Positions 44,081 through 63,271 of a DNA stretch of 64,000 nt are shown piece after piece. Made by a program: the position numbers and the translations under genes. The stretch spans positions 5,636 to 69,635 of IMG/VR virus record IMGVR_UViG_2843675664_000001; one strand, written 5' to 3'. The stretch's first letter is position 1. Every line of letters starts with the position of its first letter. The DNA is from a virus. Lineage: Duplodnaviria > Caudoviricetes. Under the pieces are notes generated by a model that was given only the letters and a program-made list of their open reading frames with translations, ran no database searches and was not told the origin of the DNA.

Positions 44081-44124
44081 CTTCTAAGCCGTAGGTCACA
44101 GGTTCGAATCCTGTAGGGGTACCA
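44081..44124 (+). tRNA. 3' fragment of tRNA-Arg(TCT): prophage attR and satellite attL
   Basis: CTTCTAA anticodon loop, GGTTCGAATCC T-arm, ACCA end; 5' half missing. Confidence 0.85.
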
Positions 44125-44289
44125 TTCTCAAGTATTTCAACGTCTACCATCGTCTCCTAAACCCCCATAGAATCAGCATTCAGTTATATTTTCAGTATCC
44201 TGTGGTCTACCCTCGTCTATTGAAATCTACATACAGAAGGGGGCATAATTGGTGGCATGCCCCCGTTCAATGAAATTCGGTGCCCCCAC

Positions 44290-45501
44290 ATGAAGCTGAC
44301 AGCCAGACAGGTAGAGACATCCAAACCTAAAGAAAAATCATATAAACTTTCTGATGGCGGGGGCATGTATTTAGAAGTCGCGCCTAACGGATCAAAATAC
44401 TGGAGAATGAAATATCGCTACGCCGGTAAAGAAAAAAGACTGGCGTTTGGTGTTTATCCGTCCATCACATTGGCGCAAGCCAGAGCAAAACGTGAAGAAG
44501 CAAAGCGGGTATTAGCCCAGGGGGATGATCCGGCACTGGTGAAAAAGGCTGAAAAGCGGGAAAGGGAATCTCTGGTTAATAACAGCTTTGAAAAAATCAC
44601 GCTGGAATGGCATGGGTATAAAAAGCCGAACTGGTCTCAGGGTTATGCTGAGGATCTGCTGGAAGCCTTTCAGAAAGATATATTCCCTCATATTGGCAAA
44701 GTCAGCATTACAGAGTTAAAGCCGCTGGATATGCTGGAGGTTCTGCGTAAGCTGGAAAAAAGAGGTGTGCTGGATAAGCTGAAAAAAATCCGCCAGGCAT
44801 GCAATCAGGTTTTCCGCTATGCAATCGTAACGGGGCGGGCTGAGTATAATCCCGCCTCTGAACTTGCAGGGGCTTTATCTGCACCAAAGTCAAAACACTT
44901 CCCTCATTTGAATGTGGATGAGTTACCTGATTTTTTACAGGCATTGTCAGCTTGTAGCGGCAGCAAAATAACGCTGATAGCCACGAAGCTACTCATGATA
45001 ACCGGGGTTCGCACCATCGAACTCAGAGCGGCAAAATGGAGCGAGATTGATTTTGATAAAGCCATTTGGGAGATCCCGGTCGAACGAATGAAAATGCGCC
45101 GTCCTCACATGGTTCCGCTATCATCTCAGGCACTGGAACTATTGCGTGAGATTGAAACAATAACCGGACGATTCAGTTATATTTTCCACGGTCGGAATGA
45201 TGCTTCAAAACCGATGAGTGAAGCGGCAATCAACCAGGTACTGAAAAGGGTCGGGTATGATGGCAGAGCAACCGGTCACGGCTTCCGGCATACCATGAGT
45301 ACAATCCTGCACGAACAGGGTTATAACACCGCATGGATTGAGACACAGCTTGCACACGTAGATAAGAACTCAATCAGGGGCACATACAACCACGCACAGT
45401 ACATCGACGGACGCAGGGTAATGCTTCAGTGGTACGCGGACTATATGGACGCACTGGAGAACGGCGATAACGTTGTTCACGGTAATTTCAAACGGGCATA
45501 G
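44290..45501 (+). CDS. int: P4-type tyrosine integrase
   Basis: KLSDGGGMYL arm-binding domain; R...HGFR...LAH...YN catalytic residues. Confidence 0.95.
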   Translation: MKLTARQVETSKPKEKSYKLSDGGGMYLEVAPNGSKYWRMKYRYAGKEKRLAFGVYPSITLAQARAKREEAKRVLAQGDDPALVKKAEKRERESLVNNSFEKITLEWHGYKKPNWSQGYAEDLLEAFQKDIFPHIGKVSITELKPLDMLEVLRKLEKRGVLDKLKKIRQACNQVFRYAIVTGRAEYNPASELAGALSAPKSKHFPHLNVDELPDFLQALSACSGSKITLIATKLLMITGVRTIELRAAKWSEIDFDKAIWEIPVERMKMRRPHMVPLSSQALELLREIETITGRFSYIFHGRNDASKPMSEAAINQVLKRVGYDGRATGHGFRHTMSTILHEQGYNTAWIETQLAHVDKNSIRGTYNHAQYIDGRRVMLQWYADYMDALENGDNVVHGNFKRA

Positions 45502-45624
45502 TCCACCAGCAGCACACCGAACCAGCCAGAGTAAAGGCTGGTTTTTTATATCCGGAATACGTGAACTGGATAAATAGACAGGTGTAGTAGTCTTTAGTAG
45601 ACTGACGTAGACGATAAAGAATAA

Positions 45625-45680
45625 AGCTATGCCTAGGCTGATCCCCGAAAACCAGTACACCTCTACTGGCTGGCATAGCT
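45625..45680 (+). ncRNA. int-alpA-like RNA motif
   Basis: AGCTATGCC/GGCATAGCT stem enclosing TAGGCTGATCCCCGAAAA and CCAGTA/TACTGG hairpin; between int and alpA. Confidence 0.65.
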
Positions 45681-45708
45681 CCTATAAAAAGAGGGCGTGA
45701 GGTGGCGT

Positions 45709-46371
45709 ATGAGTGAACGGCAGTTCCATCTACTTGATTCTTTTGGGGAGTCAATAAAAAACAAAATTCTAAGAATTAAAGAAGAAGATGATATTATTTA
45801 TCAATCGGATGAGTTCGATGGTGTAATTAAAGGATTATTTTTTGATATTAAAGAACAATTACAAATAGCTACAAGCAATATATTTACCCCTGAAGAGCTG
45901 ATTATTACAGTTGAGCTAGAGAGTGCGCTTTCTGTTTTTTTAAATGATATACGAGAACAAAATATCATTGGCTATTTGTGCTTAAGCACCAAAAGTGTGT
46001 GTGACGAAATTGGATTGTCATTCCAAACATACGGCATGAGCATTTTTTGCTCTCTTTATTACATAATGAAAAAATTCGATCATATTTCTTATGAGTTTTT
46101 TTTGGTGGTTGTTCAACCGATATTGACGGCGATGAGACTGGAAGATGTCCCTAAAGAAATTGGGAAAATGGGAGGTCGCCCTGAACACCCAAGAAAAGAA
46201 GAAGCTCTTAAAACAGCAATGGAACGGTGGAGTAAAATACCCTACGCAAGCTTATCTAGTGTAGCAACATATGTTAAATCCAAGCTTGAAGAAAAATACA
46301 CAGATGCCCCTAAGTTGCCATCAATAAAGTCATGGTTGAATAAAGCAAATTTAAAGCCAGTAAAAAAATAA
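45709..46371 (+). CDS. Satellite hypothetical protein, C-terminal GGRP/HTH-like
   Basis: GAGG RBS; AT-rich ORF. Confidence 0.6.
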   Translation: MSERQFHLLDSFGESIKNKILRIKEEDDIIYQSDEFDGVIKGLFFDIKEQLQIATSNIFTPEELIITVELESALSVFLNDIREQNIIGYLCLSTKSVCDEIGLSFQTYGMSIFCSLYYIMKKFDHISYEFFLVVVQPILTAMRLEDVPKEIGKMGGRPEHPRKEEALKTAMERWSKIPYASLSSVATYVKSKLEEKYTDAPKLPSIKSWLNKANLKPVKK

Positions 46372-46374
46372 AAA

Positions 46375-61429: not shown

Positions 61430-61599
61430 AACAACAAGGTTACAACAAGGGTCAGAGCTATATAACGGTGAGATTACGGTGAGGGGTAAGGGCGAGATTA
61501 GGGCGAGGAAACGGTAAGATTACGGTAAGGTTTACGGCAAGATTACGGCAAGGAAACCACAAGGTTACTACAAAGTTTTACGCTAAGGTTACACTAAGG
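61430..61599 (+). repeat. Seven 21-bp variant modules, each an 11-bp-period direct repeat
   Basis: Units start at 61430, 61464, 61488, 61510, 61533, 61555 and 61579. Confidence 0.9.
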
Positions 61600-61739
61600 T
61601 TTTACATGCGGGATTATCCCGTATCATCGTTGGTCATTGATTCAGTGACCAATGGCAGCAATGTTTCCGGGTTTATGCCGGAATTAAGCGTTATCAATGC
61701 GTTATACTATGCGCAGTCTCAGCAGCCAGCAGGTGATCC

Positions 61740-62018
61740 ATGCGCACATACCGAAAAGCAAAGCCCATCACAGCCACAGTAACCGGCACCGTCACAAAGC
61801 CACCTCAGCGGGTCAAGACGGCTACCGGTAAAGTAATGGCAACAATGACCATTCAGGCAGAGAGTGAACGCCGCAGCCCCTATCCGCTGAAGCTGGTGGC
61901 ATTTGATATGAACGCATTGGAACTGATGACCTGCCAGAGAGGGAGCCGAGTTATTGCCACTGGGCGGCATGAATGGTTCAATGGGTATCAGCTAATTTGT
62001 ACTCAGATTACAATTTAG
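61740..62018 (+). CDS. Single-stranded DNA-binding (OB-fold) protein
   Basis: VTGTVTKPP...LVAFD...RGSRVIATG. Confidence 0.65.
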   Translation: MRTYRKAKPITATVTGTVTKPPQRVKTATGKVMATMTIQAESERRSPYPLKLVAFDMNALELMTCQRGSRVIATGRHEWFNGYQLICTQITI

Positions 62019-62061
62019 CTGTGTTCACGTAGATGATTTTTTCATGTTATTAGGGGCTGTA

Positions 62062-62559
62062 ATGAAAACTAAAGATGCATATATCTCCAATGATGATAAG
62101 TATAGGTACGATCTATGGAGGGTGTGGGATGAATCAAAGCCAAAAATTATGTTTATTGGATTAAATCCATCTACGGCTGATCAAGAAATTGATGATAACA
62201 CCATTACTCGCTGTATTGATTTTTCAGTTAAATGGGGTTTCGGTGGGCTGATAATGTGTAATTTATTTGCATTCAGAGCAACTGATCCTAAAGAGATGCG
62301 CAATGCGTCAGAACCCGTGGGGAGCGAAACTGATATGGTTCTTCTTAAGCGAGCAGAAGAAGTTGATGTCATTGTAGCTGCATGGGGGAATAATGGCGGC
62401 TTTATGGGGCGTTCTGGATATATGTTAAGCCTATTATCAGACAACTTACTATCGGATAAATTGTACTACTTGGAACTAAATAAAACGGGTGAACCTAAGC
62501 ATCCACTTTACGTACATGGCGAAACCAAGCTGACAAAATGGCAACATACGAAATTGTGA
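62062..62559 (+). CDS. DUF1643 family protein
   Basis: YRYDLWRVW...FIGLNPSTAD...NLFAFRATDP...AAWG...PKHPLY. Confidence 0.85.
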   Translation: MKTKDAYISNDDKYRYDLWRVWDESKPKIMFIGLNPSTADQEIDDNTITRCIDFSVKWGFGGLIMCNLFAFRATDPKEMRNASEPVGSETDMVLLKRAEEVDVIVAAWGNNGGFMGRSGYMLSLLSDNLLSDKLYYLELNKTGEPKHPLYVHGETKLTKWQHTKL

Positions 62560-63256
62560 TGATTTTTCAGAGTTGTTGACCAAAAGCCCTAGAAACCGTT
62601 GACGTTATCCGGATGGGGTCGCCTGACCGTTTGACGTTACCGAAAACCAGCCTTATAGAAAATAATATCTGTAAGCACGAATTGATCATGCCCGAATGTG
62701 TCTCTAAGCCAGAGACAGCAAAGCGCACAGCCTGATTACTCTGATAACTATACGTCAACGAAACGTCAATGCTATAAGGCGTTTTGCGTTGATCTGACGG
62801 ACTGCCGGTCTGTATTTATTCCGCCCTGATATCCCGCCTTACACAAAGTGGCAGAAATCTGCCATTTAACTGACCCGATATTATCGGGGTGGTTCGCAAC
62901 TAACCCTCTTAAAGAGGGTAGGCTTGTAACTGAAACTCTTAAAGAGATGTGGTTCTACTGGCGTAAGTTTGGCACATTCCGCCTCCGGATATCACGGTTC
63001 CGCTTGAAACGGAGTCAGTGGGAAATGACGGGGAGGTTACGGGTAGGGTTCTGCCTGGTCGGTGTTTCACTATCTGCAATAAATTCCGGTGGTAGTGATA
63101 TTTTCGCAATACAGTACACTCTTATCATTCTGTATCTGTATGTTTAAAAAATATCCCAAGGGAAGCCTCACAAAAACAAAAGGGGGCATTATAGGGGGCA
63201 TGGTAGATAATTGAATGGAAAATATTTGTTATTTATCAATAAATAATGTCTCTATA

Positions 63257-63271
63257 TCGAATCCTGTAGGG
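63257..63271 (+). repeat. Satellite attR core
   Basis: Identical to 44104-44118; arm-like GGGGGCAT repeats at 63182-63201 echo 44239-44259. Confidence 0.85.

Follow-up and report, generated by a model that had tools for sequence, protein, structure and literature searches.

A satellite-like island in the DNA of a tailed virus (Duplodnaviria; Caudoviricetes) carries four clusters of short repeat modules, four types of which match, in sense orientation, sites within the genes for terminase small subunits (TerS) of phages from four TerS groups. The island spans positions 44104-63271 (19 kb) of a stretch of 64,000 nucleotides, positions 5,636 to 69,635 of IMG/VR record IMGVR_UViG_2843675664_000001, which was analysed as a whole and is called the window here. 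We regard the clusters, with moderate confidence, as a library of TerS recognition elements that draw phage terminases to island DNA. Each module is, with similar confidence, read as an idealised copy of a short direct repeat present in the terS genes of phages of the corresponding TerS type. The island is probably packaged by, or interferes with, many different phages. As judged from the DNA sequence, the modules would serve either packaging piracy or as terminase decoys.

The four clusters and their main units are as follows.

47830-48545, plus strand: cluster 1, found by repeat search and by terS matches (CUS-3, NM-3, RAP44)
48095-48141, plus strand: 24-bp doublet of cluster 1
48321-48419, plus strand: three 33/36-bp units of cluster 1 spelling EF[S/C/L]ESIKK
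58385-58920, plus strand: cluster 2, with five exact 10-bp-period doublets (starts 58446, 58484, 58584, 58609 and 58686)
60800-61720, plus strand: cluster 3, found by repeat counts and terS matches
61035-61055: MLTNVDI unit of cluster 3
61058-61078: NLSKPDI unit of cluster 3
61198-61220: GGTACGCA doublet of cluster 3
61246-61265: TACCGGACA doublet of cluster 3
61431-61599: seven N-x-K-[IV]-T-x-R units of cluster 3
62565-63120, plus strand: cluster 4 (weak), with an ACGTCAA doublet at 62752 and one NGEVTGR-like unit at 63028

Exact tandem pairs with a period of 9-13 and a run of at least 7 were counted and compared with 200 dinucleotide shuffles. The 64-kb window holds 49 such pairs, 5 of them in kilobase 58 and 10 in kilobase 61. 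Cluster 2 has 5 pairs against 0.20 expected (maximum 2) and cluster 3 has 10 against 0.23 (maximum 3); the shuffles rule out a chance origin for these two clusters. Cluster 4 has 1 exact pair against 0.10 expected, plus one unit with 1 mismatch, and cluster 1 has 0 pairs against 0.23. No credible open reading frames (ORFs) were found in clusters 2-4, nor any RNA family by Rfam, whose sole matches in the island are the int-alpA RNA and the RNAs of the C4/isrK region. Periods of 10/11/12 bp, along with the sequence identity with terS, appear to fit DNA sites better than an RNA array.

The modules that match terS fall into four groups.

Module group 1: 11-bp repeat encoding N-x-K-[IV]-x-x-R, Terminase_2
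Module group 2: 10-bp repeat encoding NLSKPDI, Terminase_2
Module group 3: GGTACGCA repeats, as in the neighbouring prophage's own terS
Module group 4: PEF[SL]ESIKKG segment, CUS-3/RAP44-type terS

These matches came in part from a blastn search of 50,697 phage records (word 11, E up to 10). For cluster 3, 6 of the 12 records match inside terS (two records of phig1e, Bordetella IFTN8 and IFTN9, and two records of Cronobacter phiES15), and for cluster 2 one of 11 does (phiS10), where the unit at 58446 is close to the terS codons for QILTKPNF. Cluster 1 gave 22 annotated terS genes among the best 40 of 81 records (CUS-3, NM-3 and Riemerella phages), and its units are identical to the codons for PEF[SL]ESIKKG in the terS of CUS-3 and RAP44. 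Two control stretches of the island gave terS in 0 of the best 40 of 94 and 0 of the best 40 of 154 records. All inspected terS matches are in sense and lie at the same place in the gene, codons 40-47 (ENLSKPDI/ENLTKPDI) in Terminase_2 proteins and the PEF[SL]ESIKKG segment in TerS of CUS-3 and RAP44. Exact identities of 20-21 nt join island modules to terS of phiES15, IFTN8 and IMG/VR phages; these and the GGTACGCA doublet are, by their sequence, candidate non-coding copies of a terminase recognition sequence, the kind of packaging-signal mimicry known from satellites. When 17 island modules were compared with a pool of 148 terS genes, 11 lay within 4 mismatches of a site (two at 0 and five at 2), against 0 of 60 control 20-mers from the island, whose nearest sites were 5-8 mismatches away.

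An initial annotation, made by inspection of the letters and their ORFs, had described the clusters as allelic variants of terS snippets from several TerS groups, all in sense, and the matches in four groups bear this out. Its details fared unevenly. Direct repeats of 10-12 bp, which it saw in many modules of the clusters, are borne out by the shuffles in clusters 2 and 3; cluster 1 has periods of 33/36 and 24 bp instead, and cluster 4 is weak. Of the small-terminase motifs that it named, four module types do match terS in sense, and the FIGVTTR and P22-like readings were supported by no match. The terS enrichment that it expected from a short-word search appeared over the controls for clusters 1 and 3, amounted to one match for cluster 2 and was missing for cluster 4.

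The series of seven units in cluster 3 gave the largest sample. A 20-nt IUPAC pattern spanning four of the units was found in at least 114 IMG/VR stretches, and 82 matches in 80 loci were analysed. ORFs of 110 amino acids or more contain 51 of the 82, in the sense frame NGKIT[AV]R at about residue 47-65. These ORFs comprise 37 unique proteins, 35 of which open with an LTxKQExFCxxYIExGNASEAYR N-terminus, and Pfam Terminase_2 was present in all 22 that were scanned. The other 31 matches have non-coding or short-ORF contexts, many of them within arrays of like units. The two variable letters agree between the halves in 77 of the 82.

The snippets represented in the island are the one place in the terS genes with a conserved direct repeat at the DNA level. 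For this comparison terS samples were drawn through protein motifs elsewhere in the gene, so that codon choice at the site was unselected; the 'GNASEAYR' clade comprised 64 unique segments from 80 loci and the 'NATQAAIRAGYS' clade 69 unique segments. In the GNASEAYR clade, exact period-11 runs of at least 6, 7 and 8 occur in 35, 29 and 16 of the 64 genes. Synonymous recoding gave means of 1.9, 0.5 and 0.2 (maxima 5, 3 and 2 in 200 rounds), and periods 6-10 and 12-15 were seen in at most 8, 1 and 0 genes. All but one of the 35 runs begin within 6 nt of one another, and the remaining 16,062 nt of these genes contain no period-11 run of 7 or more. In the NATQAAIRAGYS clade, period-10 runs occur in 45, 31 and 22 of 69 genes against 4.6, 1.8 and 0.6 by synonymous recoding, counts that overstate the independent events because the sample is rich in close relatives; other periods reach at most 6, 1 and 1. 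The recoding rules out chance, and amino-acid repeats cannot explain the signal because neither 10 nor 11 is divisible by three. The letters of the half-sites vary between genes yet co-vary across the halves, with at least 10 cores in the GNASEAYR clade and about a dozen in the NATQAAIRAGYS clade; because of the repeat, certain residues must change together (G with A or V, P with L, R with A and N with T). The island units are perfect versions of these terS doublets.

The third module group is shared with a complete-looking prophage that occupies window bases 1 to about 44000.

15331-15924: HNH endonuclease gene, about 850 bp upstream of the prophage terS
16775-17377, plus strand: prophage terS (phrog_1206 terminase small subunit, E 2.3e-86), with GGTACGCA three times, at 16951, 16966 and 16978

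The prophage also has terL, portal and head genes and then tail genes up to 43656. The window holds five copies of GGTACGCA against 1.58 expected, three in the prophage terS (spacings 15 and 12) and two in the island (spacing 12), all on the same strand. A doublet of this type with 12-bp spacing was found in at least 119 IMG/VR stretches, and 81 matches in 80 loci were analysed. In 62 of the 81 the doublet lies at most 75 residues after the same TerS-type helix-turn-helix; 18 lie elsewhere and one is cut, and some chance matches are expected of a pattern with 16 fixed letters. The doublet is read in two frames, giving VRKxEVRKQVR in one set of genes and GTQxGTQ in another. Since it is conserved across different reading frames, selection appears to act on the DNA.

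A link to packaging is provided by SPP1, the mapped member of the Terminase_2 family. A pac site inside terS is established for P22 (PMC9611059), and SPP1 pac overlaps the gene 1 codons of the DNA-binding domain (PMC6316719). The main pac cut of SPP1 is at coordinate 1 of its genome (PMC6316719, Figure 1 legend). Gene 1 spans the origin of the SPP1 record, and coordinate 1 comes after 44 codons, 4 nt before the codons for ENMQKPHV; the part of gene 1 downstream of the cut aligns with Terminase_2 from about profile position 38. Because the ENMQKPHV codons align there, the NLSKPDI and MLTNVDI modules are homologous to the DNA at the SPP1 cut, the place of packaging initiation in this family member. 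SPP1 pacL is described as the non-encapsidated end (title cited in PMC6316719), so head filling runs in the sense direction of terS. The effect of such sites on transfer can be large: a pac or pac-like site on a plasmid is reported to raise P22 transduction about 10,000-fold (PMC11260489), and transduction of the Vibrio cholerae phage-inducible chromosomal island-like element (PLE) is reported to require its 14-bp pac mimic (PMC11417361).

The modules turn over between islands. Related islands L007, L008, L010 and L011 and five further ones share the flanking genes of the window island and carry different module sets, and this holds between islands of Morganella and Xenorhabdus relatives whose primases are 72-93% identical. 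Turnover of modules, for which the initial annotation had suggested comparing homologous islands, is evident. Metagenome contigs show further island variants, including differences in the module regions, though as contigs they do not reveal where molecules end. An RNA sequencing run had 0 reads on the island and is not taken as evidence on expression. Examples from three of the islands are listed here.

L007: TCCCATACG five times, ACGGTCCC twice
L008: AATCTTAGG three times
L011: AGGTATCCAC twice, perfect AACCTGACA twice

This turnover bears on an alternative that we consider improbable, in which the arrays are sensors or operators and an incoming phage TerS, or another phage DNA-binding protein with the same sites, turns island genes on. 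Cluster 1 could be such a site as the leader of an immunity and replication operon, since the C4/isrK RNAs and the replication genes follow directly downstream of it, and cluster 3 as the promoter of a divergent, conserved ribbon-helix-helix (RHH) gene that it abuts; SPP1 TerS bound at pac is also reported to repress its own operon (PMC4737164). However, module content changes while the flanking genes stay constant, most modules lie in long arrays hundreds of bases from any start codon, and TerS, as a late protein, would be a poor early signal.

If the clusters are a library of recognition elements, events would begin when a phage develops in a cell that carries the island. The island would excise and replicate by way of its integrase and AlpA, its primase and its iteron origin. 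Phage TerS would bind its cognate module, and phage TerL would cut nearby and fill phage heads with island concatemers, rightwards through the attachment site (att) and the whole island. From the excised, replicated island filling would run via att into int and onward through the element, and for an island still integrated it would proceed into the flanking host DNA. With many alleles drawn from at least four TerS groups, the island would be able to use a broader set of helpers, and diversion of terminase from the phage would be a side effect.

The orientation of the modules helps to separate this mechanism from one in which the arrays act purely as decoys or in defence. In the window island every assignable module is on the plus strand, and over 10 related islands two asymmetric module types lie in the plus orientation in 15 of 15 and 9 of 9 cases. 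A decoy would titrate TerS or provoke futile cuts and packaging starts, lowering phage yield and shielding the host population with no transfer of the island, and would require no fixed orientation. The island also keeps its full excision and replication set, which fits mobilisation, and a single-copy chromosomal array would be a weak sink for TerS unless amplified. On the other side, many variants next to each other would suit broad titration, and the island bears other anti-phage cargo (PD-T4-9/CmdTAC). Moreover, if the neighbouring prophage is a cos/HNH packager, a TerS-binding mimic that lacks the nick site could only interfere. On balance we judge a pure decoy role unlikely.

Several observations weigh against a recognition library. 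An HNH gene just before terS is an arrangement typical of cos/HNH packagers, so headful packaging by the neighbouring prophage is uncertain, and a cos packager would need a cos nick site too. The uniform orientation could in part reflect common descent. None of the 10 weak blastn matches of cluster 4 lies in terS, 6 of the 17 modules have no close counterpart among the 148 sampled terS genes, and an IMG/VR scan with the ATGTATCGG doublet gave island-type arrays only (9 of 9 loci) and no cognate terS. Isolated TerS DNA-binding domains of SF6/SPP1 and of P22 are reported to bind pac weakly in vitro, with no clear specificity (PMC4737164; PMC9611059), and the SPP1 pac cut is reported to be sequence-independent (title cited in PMC6316719); the 10/11-bp repeat may therefore not be the determinant of specificity. 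How TerS selects viral DNA is itself called unclear and controversial (PMC9611059). Nor is the carriage of modules specific to satellites, because phage-like contigs carry them as well. One of these (L023, at about 10060-10110) has two doublets of other alleles in an intergenic position about 9 kb downstream of its own Terminase_2 terS; contigs of this type include L014, L021, L024, L031, L033 and others. In Vibrio phage 1.111.A (L416, 901-927) a cluster 1-type unit lies between convergent genes. Finally, cluster 1 falls within a long frame that is open in all four islands listed below; it starts at the end of the Rha-like gene and extends as far as an Icd-like C-terminus.

47819-49048: long open frame around cluster 1 in the window island
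7598-8713: the same frame in L011
7620-8528: the same frame in L007
7359-8342: the same frame in L008

The middle of this frame is replaced between islands, and it overlaps the isrK/C4 RNAs, where Pfam 'Phage_ASH' matches. It may have an RNA or a protein role, or reflect a need for leader translation. The frame, together with unit spacings in cluster 1 (24, 33 and 36) that are divisible by three, also speaks for a view in which the modules are not TerS sites at all and are instead terS relics or recombination patches, sites of the island's own proteins (iterons, RHH or Rha operators) or, in cluster 1, the code of a repetitive protein; the conserved RHH protein that adjoins cluster 3 suits this view too. 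We give it little credence. The doublets are more perfect than their terS originals and their halves change jointly, which argues for selection on a DNA repeat; the module sets vary while the primase and RHH proteins are 78-95% identical; and clusters 2-4 are devoid of credible ORFs. Two specific versions were rejected. The true iterons form a separate family beside the primase, and module sets change across the 72-93% range of primase identity. A decayed terS pseudogene does not account for units of different TerS groups side by side, or for doublets more perfect than in the genes.

Similar arrays occur elsewhere. At least five doublets of the N-x-K-[IV]-T-x-R type, with different cores, are found in L051 (about 3920-4080), L055 (about 130-520) and L059 (about 4640-4725), unrelated viral contigs that are partly of low GC. 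We tentatively suggest, as a possibility somewhat short of even, that a packaging-site library is a general device by which satellites and some phages offer themselves to, or poison, many terminases; the doublets would be specificity elements of the TerS ring, and TerS motifs would be shaped by an overlapping DNA code. If so, NLSKPDI, NGKITAR and VRKxEVRKQVR/GTQxGTQ would be motifs of this kind, pairs of modules and terS alleles would form a readable TerS recognition code, and helper range could be predicted from sequence. The arrays in unrelated contigs suggest that such a device may matter for gene transfer and phage interference beyond Morganella.

P4 and SaPIbov5-type satellites have no terminase and are packaged by the helper terminase via a copied cos. 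SaPIbov5 is described as the prototype of the cos-type Staphylococcus aureus pathogenicity islands (PMC8569155). Satellite mimicry of a helper's packaging signal is thus already known, for cos in P4 and SaPIbov5 and for pac in PLE. P4 and SaPIbov5 have a single cos, one helper family and genes for capsid-size redirection, whereas the island has pac-type repeats with many different specificities and yielded no capsid-remodelling gene. PLE resembles the island in having a short non-coding stretch that reproduces its helper's pac, with 14 bp identical (PMC11417361). As described there, PLE has one site for one helper (ICP1), derived from an intergenic pac region, and packaging proteins of its own (Gpi, GpsA and GpsB), in contrast to the island's dozens of modules of at least four TerS groups from within terS, with no recognisable packaging protein. 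P22 pseudo-pac sites resemble the island modules in being short pac-like sequences outside the phage, and there they raise packaging and transfer by orders of magnitude (PMC11260489). Plasmids are likewise reported to gain packaging signals of phages or of phage-inducible chromosomal islands (PICIs) (PMC8494744). Such pac-like sites in hosts and plasmids are, in the accounts cited, scattered, single and matched to one phage, unlike the dense, phased, same-strand arrays of variants seen here. SPP1/SF6 pac involves the same TerS family (Terminase_2) and overlaps codons of the DNA-binding domain, and is described as a single composite site, borne by the phage, that spans about 200-300 bp and consists of pacL-pacC-pacR with the direct repeats boxA/B/C (PMC4737164, PMC6316719).

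The initial annotation knew of no description of such an arrangement. Single pac mimicry has in fact been published for PLE (PMC11417361), and the full-text literature that was searched, a scope that leaves aside subscription journals and supplements, describes neither a multi-family array nor a co-varying terS doublet as a recognition element. What appears to be new, as read from the DNA, is twofold: an element that has no packaging genes holds arrays, dense, phased and confined to one strand, in which at least four TerS groups are represented by many alleles, and large terS families seem to carry a co-varying direct repeat at the position equivalent to the pac cut. A co-varying repeat at a fixed position in terS offers concrete candidates for TerS recognition elements and makes the question of how TerS selects viral DNA testable. 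The island arrays display many alleles free of coding constraint and are a natural set of specificity variants. A satellite that has no packaging gene and relies on a collection of sites would exploit phages in a minimal and very broad manner.

The remaining features of the island are as follows.

44257-45501, plus strand: tyrosine integrase with arm-binding domain (Pfam Phage_int_M, Arm-DNA-bind_3, Phage_integrase)
45626-45694, plus strand: int-alpA RNA (Rfam RF02996, 51.9 bits; gathering score 35.8)
46513-46731, plus strand: AlpA-family regulator (Pfam Phage_AlpA, E 8e-17)
47140-47829, plus strand: Rha-like regulator (Pfam Phage_pRha; PHROG 2657 and 518)
48574-48802, plus strand: a1b1 targets, isrK and C4 antisense RNA (Rfam RF03163, RF01394, RF01695)
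51056-53803, plus strand: primase-helicase with Zn ribbon, Toprim and DUF927 (Pfam)
53883-54180, no strand assigned: iterons of the TGAACCAACA family, found by repeat search and adjoining the primase
55277-57679, plus strand: tape-measure/lysozyme-like cargo gene, 800 amino acids (phrog_2276, E 8e-163)
59070-60307, plus strand: PD-T4-9 A/B/C (CmdTAC-type toxin-antitoxin-chaperone) anti-phage cargo (PADLOC, E 3e-94, 3e-36 and 2e-56)
60304-60729, minus strand: 141-amino-acid protein with RHH-like N-terminus and helical C-terminal part (comparison with related islands)

An integrase and an AlpA-type regulator stand at one end of this att-flanked element, and its own primase adjoins iterons that are likely the replication origin, as in PICI/P4-like satellites. 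The RNA immunity upstream of the replication genes is of the P1/P4 type (C4-type), with Rfam scores of 83.4 bits for C4, 72.9 bits for isrK and 44 bits for a1b1, as in P4-like elements; small ORFs lie between this region and the primase. Gram-negative PICIs and P4-like satellites thus share with the island int, alpA, a P4-alpha-like primase with iterons, C4/CI-type RNA immunity, integration at a tRNA end and defence cargo. The island differs from strict members of both classes: Pfam and PHROGs gave no match to terS, rpp, ppi or capsid-morphogenesis genes of PICIs, nor to psu, sid or delta of P4 (cos was not searched as sequence). Pfam and PHROGs likewise returned no terminase, portal or capsid match in its roughly 30 ORFs, where remote homologues could escape, and no known redirecting protein. 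The initial annotation had listed int, alpA, primase and an origin, and no recognisable terS, terL, portal or capsid gene; Pfam, Rfam, PHROGs and the iterons agree with both statements.

The 800-amino-acid ORF has a lysozyme/transglycosylase-like part and is the sole virion-type gene of the island. The PD-T4-9 triad sits between clusters 2 and 3 and does not occur in the related islands. Segment 54630-58145 is missing in L007, L008 and L011 and segment 58920-60337 is missing from the relatives, so both are cargo. Mobility of the island bears on the spread of defence systems, given this cargo. A ProQ/FinO-like ORF is a weak match (Pfam ProQ, E 1.7e-4, 22 bits against a cut-off of 27 bits), and the island also encodes a small RHH protein and a DUF1643 protein. 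The 141-amino-acid protein is 78-95% identical in 9 related islands (with a frameshift in L011) and always divergent from cluster 3. No family could be assigned to it, the protein atlas returning 'prophage protein' clusters alone, and its AlphaFold2 model (mean predicted local distance difference test score 45.2) was too poor for use.

The record that holds the window is a 69.6-kb IMG/VR provirus. A 15-nt direct repeat marks the island ends (44104-44118 and 63257-63271), and this core has no copy in the whole record besides these two.

44081-44124, plus strand: 3' part of a tRNA gene with the left att core (44104-44118), from sequence reading and from tRNA-like loose ends at 44081 in metagenome contigs
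63257-63271, plus strand: right att core (15-nt repeat match)

ARAGORN found no whole tRNA in the window. In metagenome contigs (loose ends at 44081) the island adjoins a whole tRNA and the prophage is absent; because this junction exists without the prophage, the prophage and the island are independent of each other and lie in tandem at a single att site. A megablast search with the entire island gave a single weak E. coli match and zero phage matches, so the island has no annotated twin. Relatives of the primase come from two islands of Morganella morganii (93% and 85%), from M. psychrotolerans (72%) and from Xenorhabdus ehlersii (71%), which suggests a host among the Morganellaceae.

Directly right of the island, a short ORF at 63464-63570 resembles the N-terminus of a P4-type integrase and is interrupted by a stop; it is probably what is left of a further element at this att site. 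Further right, at 63665, begins an ArsR-like gene. Within the record, an 18-nt stretch is common to the prophage (intergenic, 12898-12931) and the island (61347-61380) on opposite strands, and the match between these two segments is 89% over 34 nt (E 5.5e-4).

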